From NCBI GenBank assembly GCA_963718045.1, contig OY970350.1:300001-332000 (forward strand): a stretch of 32,000 nucleotides of DNA. Direction: 5' to 3'. A model generated the notes under the pieces. The model was given only the letters and a program-made list of their open reading frames with translations. It was not told the origin of the DNA and made no database searches. Origin of the DNA: Candidatus Saccharimonadota bacterium (lineage in GTDB: Bacteria; Patescibacteriota; Saccharimonadia; Saccharimonadales; UBA4665). A program made the translations under genes and the position numbers. This document shows positions 3,081 to 19,745 of the stretch, piece after piece (position 1 is the first letter of the stretch; each line of letters opens with the position of its first letter).

Positions 3081-6000
3081 TTATATCCTGTCTTCTATTA
3101 AATCCTTCTCAAATTTCTTAATGCCAGTCAGATTAGTTGGATATGCTGAAACATCCGGAAAATTAAGATCAGTAATATGCGCCCAGACGGCTTCAATGAG
3201 ACGGGTTAAGAATTCCTGGTCTTTATCTGTAAAATCAAGCGGCAGGACACTACTTGCCTTAATTTCGGGCTCAATAAATTCCAGTTGGCTAGACACTACC
3301 TTATAGTTTTTAAACCTAGTAGATCTTTCAACCAGGAGCTTATAGAAATACAGCTGGTGGCTATTTAGGTACATGCTGTCACCCTCGTTCCACTTGGTTT
3401 TAGCTTTACTGGTTTTATAGTCGACAATAGTAATTTGTTTTAGGTTATTATCTATAACTAGTTTGTCTATCTTACCGCCAATTCTAAGGCCGTTTAAAAC
3501 CGCCCCTTCGCTTCTATACTCACTTATATCTTTAAGCGATAAAATTGCCTTATTTTGGTTGTAGTAATTAGTTAGGGCGTTAATACCCTGCTCTTTTAAG
3601 AGCTTAAAGTCAGTTGGCAGTATGCGCCGTTTAGTCAGAGCTGATTCAAATTGCTCTAGCAGCTGTTTTAATGACGGCAGGCTGGCAGCTTGACTTAGGT
3701 TTTTCTGGAGCCAATCTAGACTAGCGTGTATAGCTATACCATAGTCTTGCTTTGGTGTAATCGGGGTTGCATAACCTAAGATTACTGACTTTAGAAAAGT
3801 TTCGGGACCGTCATAACTAATACCTACGAAAGTATTAAGATCAGTCGGACTTAACGAGTAGTTGCTTAGCCGGTCTTTAAGGAGAGTTTTAAGTTCAGGC
3901 GTAAGGTCTGGAATATGCTCATAGCTTTGCCATAGCGGTACAAGATTAATTGGGGTTTTGGATTCTACTGGTTTAGGTATAAGAGTTGAGTATTTAAGAG
4001 GTGTAGTTAGTTTGCCTCTTGTATCTTGGTTATAACTTAAAGTAAAGACGTTATTTTTAGCTCTGGTTAAGGCAACGTAAAGCATTCTTAGTCTTTCATC
4101 GTCACGGTCTTCAGCACCTTCTTTAATGAACTCAAGGTTTAAGGGCAAACCTATCTGATTATGAGAGGAGCGTTTAGCAGCCCAGACCTCGTTTGTATAC
4201 GAAGGTAAAATTACAGTGTCAAATTCTAGGCCCTTTGAGCCGTGAACGGTCATCAGTTTAACTTTAGCTTCGCTGCTGCCAATGTTTATATTGCTGGTGA
4301 GCTTAACAGCTGAGAGAGTCAGCTGATCAACAAACCGAATTAGGTCAGATACTAAAAGAGCTTTTGTATTATCTAAGTTAAAGTCAATAAACTGTTCTCT
4401 TAAAACAATTAGGTTTTGCAGTAATCTAGGAATAGGATCATCTTCAAGATGGCTATGGTAGTTAAGAAACGGGGATCTTGTAACTTTCTTTTTAGAATCA
4501 TTTATAACGATGTCACTCAAGCCAATTACCTGGTCAATCAAGGTGTCATAGCGGTCAATCTTAGAACTTGCTGCCAGTTTAATAAACATTAAGGCAATAT
4601 CTTTAGTTTTCGGGCTTTCAAACAGCAGTTCTAGCCATGGCGTATGTGTATCCCAGGCCTGCCAGGATAGCCGCCAGATGTCTTCTGTCGGCAGGCCAAA
4701 AAAGTCATAGTTTAATACTTGTGATAGATAAGAATCGGTTAGGTTGTTGTTTTGATCTGCTATTGCCTGGACTACTCTTAGCATGGTTATTATCTGGCTG
4801 ACTAGCGGGTCTTCTAAGATATTCTCTTTACGCTCATAGCTTATTGGTATGTTTTCGCTTGCTAAATAGGCTGAAGCTCTTTCCAGGTACTTATGTTCTG
4901 GAGCTATAACTGCTATTTCTTTATCTGGCGCATTTTTTGCCTCCTGGGCTATCCAGTCGTATTGCTCTAGCTCGTTATTACATATAAGGCTAGAAATACT
5001 GCCTGTTTCTTTTCTGACCGATTTAAAGTGCTTATTTACACCGCTCAGCAGATTAGTTAAGCGTTCCTTGATTTGCTCGGCAGTTCCAGCCGATAAGTCG
5101 ATAATATCTTGAGTAGAGCGGTAGTTATTTTTAAGCGTTATCTGCTTAACATTTTTATACTGGCTGACAAAGTTCAGCATATTAAAGTGTTTAGCTCCCT
5201 GGAAGGCAAAAATAGCCTGATCGTCATCACCAACGGCCATAACATTCGGCCGGCCTTCAAAGATATCGTTATCCGTTAATAGAGTTACCAGTTCGGCCTG
5301 GGCAGCGTTAGTGTCCTGGTATTCATCAAGCATGATGTATTGGTATTTTTCCTGCAGGTTATATTTAAGATCATTGTGATTTTTCATGGCTTCAATTGAC
5401 ATTAAGACCATATCGTCAAAGTCATATAGACCGTCTTTAGCTAGTCTTTTGATATAGCTTGAATAAAAGCCAGCGAACTTGATTGAGGTCTCATTAGTTT
5501 TTTTGCCTTTTGGAACATATAGCCCGTCTTCATCCTTTTCTAAGAACTTTAATTTCCATTTAGACAGGCTAGACGATTTTTTAGTCTCCAAACATTCGAC
5601 GATTACTTCCTCTAACTCCTGGTTCCACATGGAGGCTATAGATTCGACGCCGCCTGGCAAATTGGCTGTTTTGTCTCCTAAGATCAGCTTTTTAAAGTTA
5701 TTCAGGTACTTATTAACTGCTCGAAGTTCGTCACTTGTTAGGGAGCGTGTAATCTCACTAGTCTTATAAATAAAGTCCAGATTAGATCTAGCTACTTTAA
5801 ATATATCTTCTGGGCTAAGCAAGGCTCTTTTAGACCAGCTGATGAGATCGGCTAAATTGGTAACTAGATCAACATTTTTTAGTTCGTTGGTATACGGAAG
5901 ATCATCTAACAGTTCACGGATAATTGTTTCTGACTTTAATTTGTTTATTGGTCTTAAGTTTATGCCTGCAAAGGATTCCGGAAACTCCCGGATTATTTCA

Positions 6001-6290
6001 CTGCCGAAACTGTGATATGTACTAATGGTAATTTTGTATGCCTCATCTCCAATCATTTTAATTAAGCGGTCACGCATTTCTTGTGCACCAACTTCAGTAA
6101 ATGTTAGACAAAGGATATTGTCTGGCAGTGTGTCAGTCACTCTAAGAATATTTGCTGCTCGAAGGCTTAATAGCTGGGTTTTACCTGTTCCGGGACCGGC
6201 AATAACTAGAAGCGGACCGTCAATATAGTCAACAGCTGCCTTTTGGTCCACGTTAAGCTTTTTATACTCTTGGTTAAAGTCTGCTTGCAT
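3081..6290 (-). CDS. UvrD/PcrA/AddA-like SF1 helicase fused to a C-terminal RecB-family PD-(D/E)xK nuclease domain
   Basis: Helicase motifs: AGPGTGKT (6177-6197), MLDEYQDTN, VGDDDQAIFAFQGA, NYRS, TVHGSKGLEFDTV, LYVALTRAK. C-terminal nuclease motifs: GGKIDKL...IVDYK (DYK at 3414-3422) and QLYFYKLL. No Cys cluster is visible. Confidence 0.85.
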   Translation of the reverse strand: MQADFNQEYKKLNVDQKAAVDYIDGPLLVIAGPGTGKTQLLSLRAANILRVTDTLPDNILCLTFTEVGAQEMRDRLIKMIGDEAYKITISTYHSFGSEIIREFPESFAGINLRPINKLKSETIIRELLDDLPYTNELKNVDLVTNLADLISWSKRALLSPEDIFKVARSNLDFIYKTSEITRSLTSDELRAVNKYLNNFKKLILGDKTANLPGGVESIASMWNQELEEVIVECLETKKSSSLSKWKLKFLEKDEDGLYVPKGKKTNETSIKFAGFYSSYIKRLAKDGLYDFDDMVLMSIEAMKNHNDLKYNLQEKYQYIMLDEYQDTNAAQAELVTLLTDNDIFEGRPNVMAVGDDDQAIFAFQGAKHFNMLNFVSQYKNVKQITLKNNYRSTQDIIDLSAGTAEQIKERLTNLLSGVNKHFKSVRKETGSISSLICNNELEQYDWIAQEAKNAPDKEIAVIAPEHKYLERASAYLASENIPISYERKENILEDPLVSQIITMLRVVQAIADQNNNLTDSYLSQVLNYDFFGLPTEDIWRLSWQAWDTHTPWLELLFESPKTKDIALMFIKLAASSKIDRYDTLIDQVIGLSDIVINDSKKKVTRSPFLNYHSHLEDDPIPRLLQNLIVLREQFIDFNLDNTKALLVSDLIRFVDQLTLSAVKLTSNINIGSSEAKVKLMTVHGSKGLEFDTVILPSYTNEVWAAKRSSHNQIGLPLNLEFIKEGAEDRDDERLRMLYVALTRAKNNVFTLSYNQDTRGKLTTPLKYSTLIPKPVESKTPINLVPLWQSYEHIPDLTPELKTLLKDRLSNYSLSPTDLNTFVGISYDGPETFLKSVILGYATPITPKQDYGIAIHASLDWLQKNLSQAASLPSLKQLLEQFESALTKRRILPTDFKLLKEQGINALTNYYNQNKAILSLKDISEYRSEGAVLNGLRIGGKIDKLVIDNNLKQITIVDYKTSKAKTKWNEGDSMYLNSHQLYFYKLLVERSTRFKNYKVVSSQLEFIEPEIKASSVLPLDFTDKDQEFLTRLIEAVWAHITDLNFPDVSAYPTNLTGIKKFEKDLIEDRI

Positions 6291-6453: not shown

Positions 6454-7029
6454 TCAACTACCTATTTGTCTGAGCCAATCTCTTATGTACATACCAACAC
6501 GTTCGGTGTCAGTTTTTTTTAAGGCACCCCCATGCATTAAGACGTTTCTCGATTTTTCAATCGTGCTAATTATTTCTTTAGCCCAATCTATATTGCTAAT
6601 ATGCGCTTCAAATAGTGGCCAGTTTCCCGAAATTATTGATACTAAATCACCAAATTCCGTGTAGTCTATCAAATTTTCGCCTCTTGCTGAATGCCATCTA
6701 ATGGATTGTTCAGAGTCCCTTCTATTCTCAGCTCTTGTACGAACTTCTTTTTTGACAGATTTTTCCCACCATCCTGTACCTTTTTCTTCCTGCATTTTCT
6801 GACTTATAAAGCCACGGACGGTATTTTCGAACGCATGGATAGCTGTGTAGACAATTGCCATTGTTTCTGCCACACCAACAATATTAGGATCCATATCGTT
6901 TAAGCCAAGTTGCACATACTGCATCTCTAGCTCTTCTGATCGCTGTTTTCGCTTATTTAGTCTACCTGCATTATCTAGTGACTCCTCGGTCACAAGAGCT
7001 CTGAAAACGTAAGAGTATAGATCAATCAT
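6454..7029 (-). CDS. Swt1-like HEPN domain protein (predicted RNase-type effector)
   Basis: Rx4H motif RNVLMH (R161-H166, bases 6532-6549). It is preceded by GWWEK and LIDYTEFGDLVSIISGNWPLF, which match my recollection of the Swt1-like HEPN family. The start ATG overlaps the upstream gene's TGA (ATGA at 7026-7029). Confidence 0.7.
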   Translation of the reverse strand: MIDLYSYVFRALVTEESLDNAGRLNKRKQRSEELEMQYVQLGLNDMDPNIVGVAETMAIVYTAIHAFENTVRGFISQKMQEEKGTGWWEKSVKKEVRTRAENRRDSEQSIRWHSARGENLIDYTEFGDLVSIISGNWPLFEAHISNIDWAKEIISTIEKSRNVLMHGGALKKTDTERVGMYIRDWLRQIGS

Positions 7030-7670
7030 AATAGGTGATCTCGCAAGCTCTTAAAAAGTGCATCAAACACTGCAGGATCTCTCGTGTCGGGCAGATGTAT
7101 CTGAATATTGTAATGTAGGCCCATTCTCCCAGCTAATTCGATATCGTTAGTCAAATTCGACTTGCTGGAATTTGTTGTCTTAACCTCATCTTTTTCTGTA
7201 TCTGCTTTTGGTGTGGCTTGTGTTGAAGGTTGATTAGATTTTTTTGCACTCCAAGATGCATAGGCCGAGAGTGCTTTAAATGTCTTTGCCATCATTGCCA
7301 GGACGTTATCTGTATATTTACCCTGCGTTAGCGTTCTAAGCTTGTTTTTGACCTCATCATCAGTTAGCCTGTAAGCCTCCACATTGACATTGAATAAATC
7401 TTCATAAGCTTCCATGATGGCTTCTGATAAAACACTTTTAGAACGTGTTTGATCCATAAAATCATAGTAGCGCTTAGTCGGCACCCCCCCCTCGTCAATA
7501 AAACCTAGACCCTTCAGTAAGCCAATATAAAGTCGATCATTTGTACTCTTGAATTCAAGGCTTTCCAGAAATTTCTGTGTAAATCGCTCAGGGGCTCTTG
7601 CGCTAATTATGCCATTAAAAAATGGTTCAAGATTTTTTGTTGTTATAAGATATGATGTTGTTAATGCCAT
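7026..7670 (-). CDS. DUF5343-like protein with an S/T/K-rich linker and a conserved-looking C-terminal module; partner of the HEPN gene
   Basis: N-terminal block APERFTQKFLESLEFKSTNDRLYIGLLKGLGFIDEGGVPTKRYYDF resembles DUF5343 as I remember it. The linker is low-complexity (SAKKSNQPSTQATPKADTEKDEVKTTNSSKSN). The C-terminus reads LHYNIQIHLPDTRDPAVFDALFKSLRDHLL. A GAGGG Shine-Dalgarno lies 4 nt before the ATG. That this is a real CDS is likely; the family call rests on recall only. Confidence 0.6.
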   Translation of the reverse strand: MALTTSYLITTKNLEPFFNGIISARAPERFTQKFLESLEFKSTNDRLYIGLLKGLGFIDEGGVPTKRYYDFMDQTRSKSVLSEAIMEAYEDLFNVNVEAYRLTDDEVKNKLRTLTQGKYTDNVLAMMAKTFKALSAYASWSAKKSNQPSTQATPKADTEKDEVKTTNSSKSNLTNDIELAGRMGLHYNIQIHLPDTRDPAVFDALFKSLRDHLL

Positions 7671-7697
7671 GATTCCCTCACTTAATTATAGTTAATT

Positions 7698-7726
7698 ATT
7701 ATATACCCATAAGGCAAACGCCACAA
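7698..7726 (-). promoter_or_regulatory. Candidate sigma70-type promoter for the DUF5343-like/HEPN pair
   Basis: On the minus strand: TTGTGG (7721-7726), a 17-nt spacer, then TATAAT (7698-7703), about 30 nt upstream of the ATG at 7670. The region is AT-rich, so a chance match is possible. Confidence 0.3.
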
Positions 7727-7924
7727 CTAGTAACCGTTATTTGATGCGTCAAACATCACAGAACTATAATATAAAGTTACCGATCTACTTCGGATATAGA
7801 AGGTCAGTTGTAGGTTTACCCGGTAAACTATCGTGCCCAATCTGACTCCAAAAACTGAATTCTTACCGACCACTCATTAATCGATATAAATTGATATATT
7901 CTAGCCAAAAGCTAGGCTAAATCT

Positions 7925-8929
7925 CTACTTATTTATGGGGAAAGACACTTCTACTTCGGTGCCTTTATCTACCTGACTTTTAACCGTTATAACTGCATCA
8001 TGGACATCGGCTATCATTTTAGCGATAGATAATCCTAGGCCATAACCTTCTTTTTCACTTTGTTTATTTCTTGAATCTTCCTCACGGTAAAACCTGTCAA
8101 AGATGTGATCAAGTGCTTCCTTGCTTATGCCGGAGCCGTCATCTTTTACCTTAAAGACCAACTTGTTGTCTTTGGCTCTAGCCTCAATCTTAACTTCTGA
8201 ACCCGATGGGCTATATTTAATGGAGTTATCTAGTAGTATGACTAGCAGCTGAGTTACGCTATCTTTATCTCCCATAAAGTGCTGGTCGACTACCTCTTTT
8301 TCAATAGTTATCTTTCTCTGTTCAGCTGACAAGGCAACTTGTTTAACTGCCAAATCAACAACCTGTTTGGAGTTAATGGGTGTAAAGTTTTGTTTTAATT
8401 CATCAGCCTCCAGACGGGATAACCTAAGCAGATTGTTAATTAGACTTTCTAGCTTATCTACTTCCTCTAAGCTACTCTGCAGTGTTGCCTTGAGCTCTTT
8501 AGATGAAGCTTTAGGGTTAAGTAGCGCTACTTCACTCTCCATTCTGAGGGCGGTTAAAGGTGTCCTAAGTTCATGGCTAACATCTGAGGTAAATCTTTTC
8601 TGCTGTTCATGGGCTTCCTCAATTGGTTCCAGCGTCCTTTTCGCTAGCCAATAGCTGGCAAGACCAGCTAGGATTAGAACTAAGATATTTAGAAAGATTA
8701 GCCTAAACAAGAGATCATGATCACTGCTAGATATATATGGTCTCGGATGAAAGAGATCGTCGTTATCAAAAACCGGGAACTGGTTATATATACTGGCCGA
8801 TTGAAGATGCAGGCTTCTAGCTATTTCATTAGACCCAATATGATAAACAACAAAACTAAACAGCAGGCTAATAAACATAACTATGCCTAAGTACCAGGCG
8901 GTTAGTTTTAAGGTTGCAGAACGAAACAT
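7925..8929 (-). CDS. Membrane sensor histidine kinase (two TM helices, short external loop, HisKA plus HATPase_c)
   Basis: H-box SHELRTPL, N-box LLDNSIKYS, G1 DDGSGIS, G2 GYGLGLS. Two N-terminal hydrophobic helices. Confidence 0.9.
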   Translation of the reverse strand: MFRSATLKLTAWYLGIVMFISLLFSFVVYHIGSNEIARSLHLQSASIYNQFPVFDNDDLFHPRPYISSSDHDLLFRLIFLNILVLILAGLASYWLAKRTLEPIEEAHEQQKRFTSDVSHELRTPLTALRMESEVALLNPKASSKELKATLQSSLEEVDKLESLINNLLRLSRLEADELKQNFTPINSKQVVDLAVKQVALSAEQRKITIEKEVVDQHFMGDKDSVTQLLVILLDNSIKYSPSGSEVKIEARAKDNKLVFKVKDDGSGISKEALDHIFDRFYREEDSRNKQSEKEGYGLGLSIAKMIADVHDAVITVKSQVDKGTEVEVSFPINK

Positions 8930-8943
8930 GGTTTCTCTTTCTC

Positions 8944-9621
8944 TTAAGTGCTTAATTTATATCCAAATCCTCTTAAAGTATGTATTAGCGGCTTCTTATC
9001 GGGGAATGGCCGGTCTATCTTGTTTCTTAAATAACCAATATATACCTCAATTGTGTTAGGCAGTATGTCTGCGTCTTCATCCCAAATATGACTGACAATC
9101 ATTTCCTTGGTTATTACCTGCCCTTGGTGATGCATTAAGTATTCTAGCAGCGAGAACTCTTTTTTAGATAGCTTAACCGGCTTATTGCCTCTTGTCACTT
9201 CATAACTTTGAGGATTAAGACTTAAATCATCAAGCGTTACAACTGAGCCAACGTTAACTGGCGGTCTTCGAAGCAGTGCTCTCGCCCTAGCCGTTAACTC
9301 ATCAAAAGAGAATGGTTTAACTAAATAATCATCAGCACCGCTGTTTAGGCCTTCAACTCTGTCGCCTATGGTGCCTCTGGCAGTCAGCATAATTACAGGT
9401 GTTTGAATGCCGCCGGCTCTAAGTTCACTGCATAGCGCAACTCCGTCCATTTTGCCAGGCAGCATACGGTCTAAAACGATAAGATCATAATCTGGATCCT
9501 GGGCATAAGCAAGGCCGCTGTCTGAATCATAAACAGTATCGACTGCGTAACCTTTAAGCTCCAGACCTTTCTTAACGGCCTGGGCTATCTTAGGCTCATC
9601 TTCAATCACCAGTATTCTCAT
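8944..9621 (-). CDS. OmpR/PhoB-family response regulator
   Basis: Receiver domain (ILVIEDE, LIVLDRMLPGKMDG, KPF) followed by a winged-helix output domain (LSKKEFSLLEYLM...TLRGFGYKL). Confidence 0.9.
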   Translation of the reverse strand: MRILVIEDEPKIAQAVKKGLELKGYAVDTVYDSDSGLAYAQDPDYDLIVLDRMLPGKMDGVALCSELRAGGIQTPVIMLTARGTIGDRVEGLNSGADDYLVKPFSFDELTARARALLRRPPVNVGSVVTLDDLSLNPQSYEVTRGNKPVKLSKKEFSLLEYLMHHQGQVITKEMIVSHIWDEDADILPNTIEVYIGYLRNKIDRPFPDKKPLIHTLRGFGYKLST

Positions 9622-10352: not shown

Positions 10353-11813
10353 CTATTCAACCCTCATGACTTCAGCTGGGCGGATCTTAGAAATAAGCAG
10401 TGACGAAGCTGTGCTGCCGATGATGGCAATAACTAAGGCCGCACCGACACCGTATAGAACTATTGACCAGCCGACTACTGTCTGAACATTACCCAGGCTG
10501 TTTCTGATGCCTCCAAAAGCGCCTCTGTTAACATCTCTTACTGTGAAGTTGCCGCTGCCTCTTGATATGCCGCCAAAACCTCCACCGCCTGAGAATCCGC
10601 CGGTACGCGTTACTGGGCCTCCCGGAGTAACTTGAGTAGATGTGCTTGTTTCATTAGTTACCAGAAGATGGGTAATTGGGCTAGAGGCTGCGACGCCAAT
10701 AATAATGCCGATAATTGAGCCGGCTATAGTCAAGGTAATAGCTTCACTCATGAACTGAAGGACTACTTTAATATTAGATGCGCCGATAGCTTTTAGGACG
10801 CCAATCTCTCTTCTTCTTTCCCTGACAATCATGATCATGATGAGGAAGATAATAACTATGGCGGCAATTAAAGCACCAATCAGGCTATATAGAGTAATGG
10901 TCTTAATGTTATTAAGCGGTGAAACGGTAGCTTGAGCTTCCTCTAGTGAGCTGGTGACTGTAGCTGAAGAACCTAGAGAGCTTTTAATATTGTTAGTGGC
11001 CGAGGTTAAGTTGGTCAGTGAATCAATAGTAGCTACGGCGCTAGTAACATCACCGCTTTGACCGCTCAAACTTTGCTCTAGCGGCAAGGAAACAATTATG
11101 TCGTCAGCTGCGATGTTGGTAGATGAGCCATTAAATATGGCTGAAACAGTTAAGTTTTGGCTGTAGGCGGTGAAGGTTGAGCCGACTTTTAAGTTGTTCT
11201 TGCTGGCCATAGATGTGCTAACCATGGCGTCGTCTGCAGTTGACGACCCGCTAATAGCCTTGCCGCTTGATATGGTCAGACTAGTGCCGTTTATAGATAA
11301 TGGATCGTTTGTGCCAATAATAGTTATTGGTGGGCTGAAGTTGGTTGGCAAAGTAAAGCCGCTGCTGCTGCCACCACTGACAAACAGGCTGGGACCGCTG
11401 CCGTTAGATTGGTTAACTTTAATGGTAACTGGCGAGGTTAAGCTGGTTTGGTTAGTACTGCTGCTTGAACTGCTGCCTGTACTGCCAAATGGTGAAGATG
11501 CCGAGCCGATGGTTGTCAATCGGTCTGTCAGAGTTTCATTAAGCGCAGTTACATGGGGCAAAGCGGCTACTTTAGCCAGTTCAGAAGTTGTCAGAGCATT
11601 ATTAACTGATGAAAAGCTGCTGAAGCCGGCTGGGGTAATATTAATCGTGTTGCCGACTGAACTGTTAACAGAGTTTATTTTATTTGATACTGCCTGGCGG
11701 GCTATAACCATTACCAGGCTTAAGCCAATAGCCAGGCCTAAAATAACAATAATTGAGGCGCTTCTTGTTATATTTCTGAAGGCATTACGGATACCCCGGC
11801 TAACTACGTTCAT
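10353..11813 (-). CDS. ABC transporter permease, FtsX/MacB type, with an S/T-rich ectodomain and a Gly-rich external loop
   Basis: N-terminal TM helix, a roughly 290-aa Ser/Thr-rich extracytoplasmic region, the FtsX signature RRREIGVLKAIGAS, and three C-terminal TM helices. A loop reading GGFSGGGGFGGISRGSG sits before the last TM helix. The gene lies immediately upstream of its ATPase. Confidence 0.85.
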   Translation of the reverse strand: MNVVSRGIRNAFRNITRSASIIVILGLAIGLSLVMVIARQAVSNKINSVNSSVGNTINITPAGFSSFSSVNNALTTSELAKVAALPHVTALNETLTDRLTTIGSASSPFGSTGSSSSSSTNQTSLTSPVTIKVNQSNGSGPSLFVSGGSSSGFTLPTNFSPPITIIGTNDPLSINGTSLTISSGKAISGSSTADDAMVSTSMASKNNLKVGSTFTAYSQNLTVSAIFNGSSTNIAADDIIVSLPLEQSLSGQSGDVTSAVATIDSLTNLTSATNNIKSSLGSSATVTSSLEEAQATVSPLNNIKTITLYSLIGALIAAIVIIFLIMIMIVRERRREIGVLKAIGASNIKVVLQFMSEAITLTIAGSIIGIIIGVAASSPITHLLVTNETSTSTQVTPGGPVTRTGGFSGGGGFGGISRGSGNFTVRDVNRGAFGGIRNSLGNVQTVVGWSIVLYGVGAALVIAIIGSTASSLLISKIRPAEVMRVE

Positions 11814-19670: not shown

Positions 19671-19745
19671 TGGCTAGGGCGGAGGGATTCGAACCCCCGA
19701 ATGCCAGGACCAAAACCTGGTGCCTTACCACTTGGCGACGCCCTA
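19671..19745 (-). tRNA. tRNA-Gln (anticodon UUG), with encoded CCA
   Basis: The reverse complement folds by hand. Acceptor stem UAGGGCG/CGCCCUA. D-arm GCC-AAGUGGUAA-GGC. Anticodon stem CCAGG/CCUGG with loop UUUUGGU (anticodon UUG). T-arm GGGGG-UUCGAAU-CCCUC. Discriminator G followed by CCA. It closely resembles canonical bacterial tRNA-Gln. Confidence 0.9.

Follow-up and report, generated by a model that had tools for sequence, protein, structure and literature searches.

A DUF5343-HEPN gene pair in a Saccharimonadota bacterium belongs to the catalogued defence candidate PDC-M34 and may act as a toxin-antitoxin-like RNase module

Positions 300,001 to 332,000 of contig OY970350.1 (assembly GCA_963718045.1, Candidatus Saccharimonadota bacterium), a stretch of 32,000 nucleotides referred to here as the window, carry two small overlapping genes on the minus strand, termed A and B (Table 1). 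Gene A encodes a DUF5343 protein, and gene B, directly downstream, encodes a Swt1-like HEPN protein, the predicted ribonuclease (RNase) effector of the pair. Together they are a member of PDC-M34, a two-gene cassette already catalogued in PADLOC-DB, and the pair is therefore not a new system. Its function is best read, with a probability of roughly one half, as that of a toxin-antitoxin-like or abortive-infection RNase module. A first-pass annotation of the window, made by eye, had described two overlapping minus-strand open reading frames joined by an ATGA stop/start and had proposed translational coupling. The arrangement is exactly as described, and the tight or overlapping junctions of related loci agree with coupling. 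The peptides which that annotation had quoted (RNVLMH, GWWEK, LIDYTEFGDLVSIISGNWPLF, APERFTQKFLESLEFKS and the C-terminal LHYNIQIHLPDTRDPAVFDALFKSLRDHLL) are all present in the translations, and its domain calls were borne out by Pfam for both proteins.

The HEPN assignment of B is based on a Pfam profile together with the catalytic motif. The protein matches HEPN_Swt1 (PF18731) with an E value of 4.5e-16 and 59.6 bits, above the Pfam gathering threshold (cut-off 27.5), and the alignment joins residues 63-190 to profile positions 2-115 of 115. No other Pfam family is found in B at E <= 1, and the Abi_2 family is hence among those without a match. The HEPN catalytic signature, described as intact in the first-pass annotation, proved to be so: R161, N162 and H166 do not vary among 29 homologues. 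On these sequence features, B is predicted to be a small HEPN RNase of the Swt1/Abi2 clade with an intact active-site motif. Its AlphaFold2 model is all-helical, with a mean predicted local distance difference test score (pLDDT) of 87. Confidence falls to 51-57 over the first 30 residues, compared with more than 89 in the core. The N-terminal helix within this segment has conserved positions of its own and is a possible docking site for A. A Foldseek search of the B model against the PDB returned no significant match, with HepT structures appearing at a non-significant E value of about 5, and a sequence-profile search of the PDB with B gave no meaningful match.

Gene A encodes a protein with a three-part layout, in which a helical N-terminal domain is joined by a disordered linker to a short conserved C-terminal motif. 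DUF5343 (PF17278; E 6.7e-45, residues 6-144) is the sole significant Pfam family in A. Nucleotidyltransferase families are absent even at E <= 1, in agreement with the earlier view that the partner of this HEPN protein is not a minimal nucleotidyltransferase (MNT). Neither A nor B has a match above cut-off in NCBIfam, toxin-antitoxin models included. In the AlphaFold2 model, the N-terminal domain is helical over approximately residues 5-140. The linker is not conserved in sequence among 30 homologues, yet every homologue has one. The C-terminal motif, LHYNIQIHLPxxRDxAVYDAxFxSLxxHL, is almost invariant in the same alignment of 30 sequences, and Y187, N188, I189, H192, L193, P194, R197, D198, A200, D203, F206, L209 and H212 do not vary at all. 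DSSP assigns a helix to residues 199-213 of the model and no secondary structure to residues 183-198. Mean column identity in the homologue alignments is 64% for A and 59% for B.

The fold of the N-terminal domain of A has so far yielded a single structural lead. When the family profile of A was compared with PDB sequences, the sole hit was 1ku9 (MJ223), a MarR-like winged-helix protein. The hit is marginal (E 0.0054, residues 33-126 of A), and its alignment agrees with the predicted helices 32-37 and 44-55 and with short beta bridges at residues 58 and 64. Other winged-helix signal comes from weak Foldseek hits; searched in this way against the PDB, the A model gave nothing below E 0.5, and no viral analogue was seen. 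A winged-helix core around residues 33-72 is possible and perhaps likely, though not established.

The two genes are strictly linked across phyla, in a fixed order. A profile of A was compared with one representative genome per species for 185,579 species, and relatives were confirmed in 346 places, with Saccharibacteria metagenome-assembled genomes (MAGs) holding the closest relatives of the pair. Linkage, junctions and genomic context were counted in the best 80 of these 346 loci, all in other species. These 80 loci span about 11 phyla: Patescibacteria or candidate phyla radiation (CPR), Bacillota, Bacteroidota, Acidobacteriota, Verrucomicrobiota, Chloroflexota, Actinomycetota, Pseudomonadota, Planctomycetota, Ignavibacteriota and Dormiibacterota. 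In 79 of these loci, a hidden Markov model (HMM) of B detects a HEPN gene immediately after A in the same orientation; the one remaining locus is on a contig that runs out 53 bp past A. Consequently, B lies beside A in all 79 informative genome loci. It does so as well in the eight contexts looked up for distant B homologues and for the window's own B (8/8). The most distant B relatives retrieved, at 43-48% identity, still have A upstream with a 4-nt overlap, and B without A was never seen among the relatives reachable by the searches. The linkage across phyla that the first-pass annotation had put forward for testing is thus strongly confirmed, and it extends to the most distant HEPN relatives sampled. 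The distance from the stop of A to the start of B ranges from -8 to +18 nt in 77 of 79 loci, including 4-nt overlaps in 22 and one-base overlaps in seven.

Compared with the closest relative, identity is 87% for B and 76% for A. The exact B protein is also present on 12 metagenome contigs, which measure as much as 832 kb, and at the four occurrences displayed the gene context is that of the window. Across species, the distribution is patchy, which indicates an accessory cassette spread by horizontal transfer.

Table 1. Coordinates of the gene pair, its sequence features and the related loci discussed in the text. Positions without a locus prefix refer to the window.
Feature	Position	Strand	Basis or remark
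Gene A, DUF5343 protein (PADLOC PDC-M34A)	7026..7670	minus	214 aa open reading frame; Pfam and PADLOC matches
Gene B, Swt1-like HEPN, predicted RNase effector (PADLOC PDC-M34B)	6454..7029	minus	191 aa open reading frame
A/B stop/start overlap ATGA	7026..7029	minus	stop of A and start of B share 4 nt
Shine-Dalgarno GAGGG	7679-7675	minus	4 nt 5' of the ATG of A; read from sequence
By-eye candidate promoter of A: TTGTGG, 17-nt spacer, TATAAT	7726-7721, 7703-7698	minus	read from sequence
DUF5343 N-terminal helical domain of A, residues 6-144	7239..7655	minus	Pfam span; AlphaFold2 pLDDT 83-92
Disordered S/T/K/E/P-rich linker of A, ~residues 143-188	7107..7244	minus	AlphaFold2 pLDDT below 50
Conserved C-terminal motif of A, residues 185-214	7029..7118	minus	alignment of 30 sequences; pLDDT 62-74
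N-terminal helix of B, residues 4-20	6970..7020	minus	Y5 and L18 invariant, T14 nearly so (29 homologues)
Second HEPN-core patch of B, E68-N69-x-x-R72	6814..6828	minus	E68, N69, R72 invariant in 29 homologues
HEPN Rx4H motif of B, R161-N-V-L-M-H166	6532..6549	minus	R161, N162, H166 invariant in 29 homologues
Stand-alone DUF5343, Desulfovibrionaceae	L092:3611-4759, L093:6001-7731, L094:3258-4988, L095:6001-7167		382-576 aa
Serine recombinase adjoining the pair, seven loci	L001:3829-5100, L004:6638-7921, L008:9302-11002, L011:1-1376, L012:1-1493, L029:6341-7921, L065:6539-7840

Both proteins match the PADLOC-DB v2.0.0 models of PDC-M34 over essentially their full length. Protein A matches PDLC04589 (PDC-M34A) at E 2e-78, with residues 1-213 of 214 aligned to profile positions 1-207 of 208, and B matches PDLC04592 (PDC-M34B) at E 1.3e-71, with residues 3-190 aligned to positions 5-191 of 192. 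The arrangement is likewise that of the cassette: A precedes B on one strand, and the genes are adjacent with a 4-nt overlap. The suggestion in the first-pass annotation that the pair fits no named defence system, and is a candidate new one, is therefore wrong; that annotation had itself listed a match to an already described system among the grounds for rejecting its hypothesis. PDC-M34 is one of 145 phage defence candidates proposed by Payne et al. and is described there as untested (bioRxiv 10.1101/2024.01.29.577857). Their approach was to gather gene cassettes found inside bacteriophage exclusion (BREX), defence island system associated with restriction-modification (DISARM) and type I restriction-modification systems, and to seek more homologues in RefSeq. 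Table S8 of that study lists CAS_00130, FAM_01148>>FAM_01657, with a count of 97 and the entry 'Assign as candidate PDC-M34'; we infer that FAM_01148 and FAM_01657 are A and B, respectively. Every testable feature of PDC-M34 other than embedding is found in the window. Embedding within BREX, DISARM or type I restriction-modification operons was a discovery criterion and is not required of each member, and the pair in the window lies among housekeeping genes instead. In gene order, strand and full-length model matches, no structural difference from PDC-M34 is apparent.

In the literature searched, no paper was found that names PDC-M34, DUF5343, PF17278, PF18731 or HEPN_Swt1 in its main text. 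A study that assayed eight PDC and HEC candidates did not include M34 among them (PMC12881386), and the portion of the 2013 HEPN survey concerned with the Swt1/Abi2 clade lists no DUF5343-type partner (PMC3710099). As a discovery the pair is of small weight, because it is already in PADLOC-DB. The present analysis adds the quantified obligate linkage with its junction statistics, the three-part DUF5343 layout, a stand-alone clade in Desulfovibrionaceae, and the absence of the family from the phage, plasmid and IMG/VR collections searched.

The first-pass annotation had credited the pair with its own promoter and Shine-Dalgarno sequence. The Shine-Dalgarno sequence is present, while the evidence for a separate promoter is weak: a consensus scan reported no qualifying minus-strand site directly upstream of A, because the TTGTGG hexamer of the by-eye promoter matches the consensus at only three of six positions. 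In the promoter and terminator scan of the window, promoter-like sites around the pair were no more frequent than in shuffled sequence (the counts were equal), and no terminator was found after B. The spacer upstream of A (7671-7924) measures 254 nt. No inverted repeat of 7 nt occurs within 120 nt of the start of A in the window; a 7+1+7 palindrome, GTTTACC-G-GGTAAAC, lies at 7814-7828, about 145 nt upstream of the gene. Among 79 upstream regions from related loci, 6-mer enrichment recovers only AT-rich and promoter-like words, such as TTGACT. Inverted repeats span the promoter in a few CPR loci, and no palindrome is common across the family. At L004 and L007 the TTGACT -35 box is bracketed by TTTGACT...AGTCAAA; at L010 and L056 the bracketing repeat is GGTAAA...TTTACC.

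The window itself shows no sign of a defence or mobile setting around the pair. On one side lies a UvrD helicase with a C-terminal PD-(D/E)XK nuclease domain (1069 aa, 3081-6290, minus strand), and on the other a HisKA/OmpR two-component pair (7925-9621), as the first-pass annotation had reported. Neither is conserved beside the pair in other species, and the same is true of its flanking genes in general. The remainder of the window is housekeeping, for example ATP synthase, MscL, an ABC/FtsX transporter, CysS and a Y-family polymerase. No mobility, defence or restriction-modification genes occur near the pair in the window. A foreign-DNA signature was considered and rejected, given that the G+C content is native and the sole tRNA lies 12 kb away. 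The only Rfam matches in the window are that tRNA-Gln(TTG) (19671-19745, minus strand) and a ribosomal protein L10 leader (RF00557; 31118-31237, minus strand), the latter scoring 45.3 bits against a gathering score of 44. The FtsX-family permease (10353-11813, minus strand) carries a long Ser/Thr/Gly-rich low-complexity insert. It is a single 486-aa gene in the window and in L083, and is divided into two or three genes in L081, L082 and L084, contigs with the same gene order, which points either to frameshift errors or to genuine variation within the repetitive segment.

In other species, the pair occasionally resides in defence or mobile islands. Large serine recombinases are the commonest of 149 immediately flanking genes, with seven instances, in addition to three tyrosine integrases and four transposases; within the 8-kb flanks, a large serine recombinase occurs in 11 of the 80 loci. 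The seven adjoining recombinases (Table 1) combine Resolvase, Recombinase and zinc ribbon domains. All seven loci come from uncultured lineages, and six carry the name of Saccharibacteria or of another CPR group; recombinase, A and B may move together there as one small integrative element. Beside the pair in the window there is no recombinase. Defence genes are also found among the flanks, including type II and type IV restriction enzymes, methyltransferases, Drt2 and several PDC-S families, and a Mrr-type nuclease flanks the pair in L001, the genome locus closest to that of the window. Neighbours of the mobility, restriction, defence-associated reverse transcriptase (DRT) or PDC kinds are confined to a minority of loci. 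A defence island is seen on Tara Oceans marine contigs (L085:1-16645; also L086-L091). One side of the pair is occupied there by a C5 DNA methylase, McrC, McrB (AAA_5) and an AlwI-like restriction enzyme, and the other by a CYTH protein, an M78 peptidase and DUF4411 pair and a zeta-toxin-like kinase, with a serine recombinase at the edge.

The partner family extends well beyond the cassette. An exhaustive profile search recovered 2303 clusters related to A at 50% identity, 207 of these at E <= 1e-30, and 1895 homologues of A were found. Among the best matches is a subfamily of 318-606 aa, in Solidesulfovibrio and Desulfovibrio (Desulfovibrionaceae), that has the same N-terminal domain and ends in the motif PIQIVLPESRDxAVYDAIFxSLKRHLF. 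The linkers of this subfamily are rich in P, A and E, range from well over 100 to about 400 residues, and contain, in the long linkers of the Desulfovibrionaceae genes, repeated 'PLVLELEPE'-like motifs. An HMM check found no HEPN gene within 6 kb at four such loci (L092-L095), which cover three stand-alone proteins. Two of the loci, L093 and L095, share a neighbourhood in which the DUF5343 gene is flanked by an FAD/iron-sulfur oxidoreductase and, at its other end, by PNP_UDP_1/Pribosyltran genes. This common neighbourhood suggests that the stand-alone gene is inherited vertically. A separate protein of 450 aa (P0348) joins the DUF5343 N-terminal domain through an acidic linker to tetratricopeptide repeats in place of the usual C-terminal motif, so that the N-terminal domain can pair with other C-terminal modules.

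Comparison with characterised systems places the pair closest, by analogy, to type II HEPN toxin-antitoxin or abortive-infection (Abi) modules. The HEPN-MNT systems (HepT/MntA, type II/VII toxin-antitoxin) share a small Rx4-6H HEPN RNase, a partner gene in first position and tight coupling. In contrast to the pair, their partner is an MNT protein and their HEPN component belongs to the HepT clade rather than to the Swt1/Abi2 clade. Identity with HEPN-MNT is rejected, as A lacks any nucleotidyltransferase match in Pfam and any NCBIfam match above cut-off, and neutralisation by AMPylation is not expected, because A is a DUF5343 protein. The lactococcal proteins AbiD, AbiD1 and AbiF resemble B in belonging to the Abi2/Swt1 branch of HEPN and in being predicted RNases of abortive infection, according to the relevant part of the 2013 survey (PMC3710099). 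They are single-gene systems, however, whereas the pair has an obligate second gene. A further parallel is offered by RnlA-RnlB and LsoA-LsoB, in which a HEPN RNase toxin with an anti-phage role is neutralised through direct binding by an unrelated small protein. The pair has no sequence relationship to either component of these systems, and gene order and partner architecture differ.

Two other HEPN-based candidates from the embedding study, HEC-08 and PDC-M05, were later shown to be protective. Defence by HEC-08 depends on the Rx4-6H histidine (bioRxiv 10.1101/2024.01.29.577857), and PDC-M05, a nucleotidyltransferase and HEPN pair, protected E. coli (PMC12881386). The partner feature of HEC-08 is DUF3644 with zinc ribbons and that of PDC-M05 is an MNT-like nucleotidyltransferase, and the HEPN clades of both differ from that of B; their validation is not transferable to PDC-M34. 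The Gabija system was also considered, since the UvrD neighbour of the pair matches many PADLOC GajB models (best 4.5e-69) via its generic helicase core. It was rejected: this neighbour carries a PD-(D/E)XK domain of its own and no flanking gene resembles GajA. The enzyme looks like an AddA/PcrA-type repair enzyme.

As a toxin-antitoxin-like or abortive-infection module, the pair would work as follows. A and B would be produced from one transcript by coupled translation, A first, and would form a complex in which A keeps B inactive, most plausibly through contact of the C-terminal motif of A with the HEPN dimer. A trigger, such as phage infection, a shut-off of A synthesis or the loss of A, would free the RNase, which would then cut cellular and/or phage RNA and stop growth. 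Several observations are consistent with this scheme. The genes are small, co-oriented and tightly coupled with the putative antitoxin first, as is usual for type II systems, and none of the sampled relatives has the putative toxin gene without its antitoxin partner. Linkage is asymmetric, with B never alone and A-like genes sometimes without B, an asymmetry that a toxin with its antidote would be expected to show. The combination of folded N-terminal domain, disordered linker and short conserved C-terminal peptide resembles the layout of many type II antitoxins. The scheme also draws on the definition of PDC-M34 from cassettes within BREX, DISARM or type I restriction-modification systems, on the greater conservation of B than of A against the closest relative, on the patchy distribution of the cassette and on its changeable flanks, which at some loci hold mobility or defence genes. 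The reading of the pair as a toxin plus a sensor or antitoxin, made in the first-pass annotation, remains plausible.

There is also real evidence against this reading. In the window, the pair lies outside any defence island, and its G+C content of 0.38-0.41 is the same as that of its housekeeping neighbours. Homologues of A are absent from 50,697 phage and 72,556 plasmid records (tblastn) and from IMG/VR (pattern scan), and PHROGs returned no significant family. For a system engaged in an arms race, A and B are conserved to an unusual degree, at about 50-75% identity across phyla. No operator motif is common to the 79 upstream regions, and autoregulation is hence unsupported. Neither model has a significant solved analogue in Foldseek, and no experiment on any PDC-M34 or DUF5343 member was found in the literature searched. 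The C-terminal motif is kept in stand-alone Desulfovibrionaceae genes that have no HEPN gene within 6 kb, so it cannot serve only in HEPN docking, which weakens the simplest antitoxin model. Finally, B appears intact beside a disrupted A at two loci: at L009:8001-9211, a TAA replaces the invariant Tyr of HYNIQIHLP, and at L099:1100-2339, A is frameshifted. Unless these are sequencing errors, a simple antitoxin model predicts lethality. L009 is a MAG and L099 a short-read contig, and both disruptions may be assembly or sequencing errors. At L057:7968-9300, both genes have decayed, A stopping after HLP and the N-terminal half of B being frameshifted, as expected if the loss of A selects for the loss of B.

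Some of the same observations would be accommodated if A were an activator rather than an inhibitor. Under such a scheme, B would be inert until the N-terminal domain of A recognised a signal, for example foreign nucleic acid, which would make the pair a defence system of the sensor-effector kind instead of a toxin-antitoxin. Disruption of A beside an apparently intact B, as at the two loci, would then be tolerated, and the finding that B never occurs by itself is explained just as well if it cannot work without A. A is also very strongly conserved, with many invariant polar residues, unlike typical fast-evolving antitoxins, and its possible winged-helix core could bind nucleic acid. This explanation is nonetheless unlikely. 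Small single-domain HEPN proteins with an intact Rx4-6H motif are usually active toxins that need neutralisation, as in HepT, RnlA and AbiD1 (PMC3710099), and type II antitoxin-toxin pairs are usually organised as here, the antitoxin gene leading and its stop overlapping the start of the toxin gene. Moreover, the disruptions may not be genuine, for the reasons given above.

Two further explanations dispense with a direct anti-phage role. The pair could be a plain addiction module that stabilises integrative elements or genomic islands by post-segregational killing. The serine recombinases that directly adjoin it in seven loci, and form its commonest class of immediate neighbour, point in this direction, as do the flanking tyrosine integrases and transposases and the serine recombinase that bounds the Tara marine island. 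Addiction modules are, however, common on plasmids and phages, and no homologue was detected among the 72,556 plasmid and 50,697 phage records searched; many loci, the window included, have no mobility gene nearby, and the cassette was first found inside BREX, DISARM or type I restriction-modification operons, all of which makes a purely stabilising role rather improbable. The remaining explanation, and one given very little credence here, places the pair outside biological conflict: a DUF5343 protein with its own cellular role would, in this lineage, have gained a dedicated RNase subunit with which to process RNA or respond to stress. The large size of the DUF5343 family, the conserved chromosomal position of the stand-alone gene in two Desulfovibrionaceae genomes with its suggestion of vertical inheritance, the high conservation of both A and B, and the housekeeping neighbours and native composition in the window are all compatible with it. 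Against it stand the occurrence of the pair in only 346 places among 185,579 species and in about 11 phyla, which points to a horizontally moved accessory cassette, a neighbourhood that differs between genomes and includes restriction, McrBC and recombinase genes, and the existence of pseudogenised copies.

The toxin-antitoxin-like or abortive-infection reading remains the preferred one. A more speculative and distinctly less probable proposal concerns the nature of the partner. DUF5343 could represent a type of HEPN regulator not recognised before, whose fold lacks a solved counterpart and which also has its own role in the cell; such a role would account for the syntenic genes that stand alone and keep both the N-terminal domain and the C-terminal motif. 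Within PDC-M34, the protein would have been taken over as a tethered sensor-inhibitor, linking a conserved cellular or phage cue to release of the RNase. Such control would differ from AMPylation by MNT proteins, from RnlB-type binding and from ligand sensing by CARF domains, and it would operate in genome-reduced CPR bacteria, among others.

The cassette is worth characterising as a compact two-gene module that is strictly linked in about 11 phyla and whose effector has an intact HEPN active site. It is present in Saccharibacteria and other CPR bacteria, which are lineages of small genomes, and its DUF5343 partner has neither a solved structural analogue nor a publication that could be found. 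Learning how DUF5343 controls the RNase would add another mode of regulation to the HEPN repertoire, and explaining the stand-alone DUF5343 genes of Desulfovibrionaceae would provide a function for a family of more than 2000 sequence clusters.

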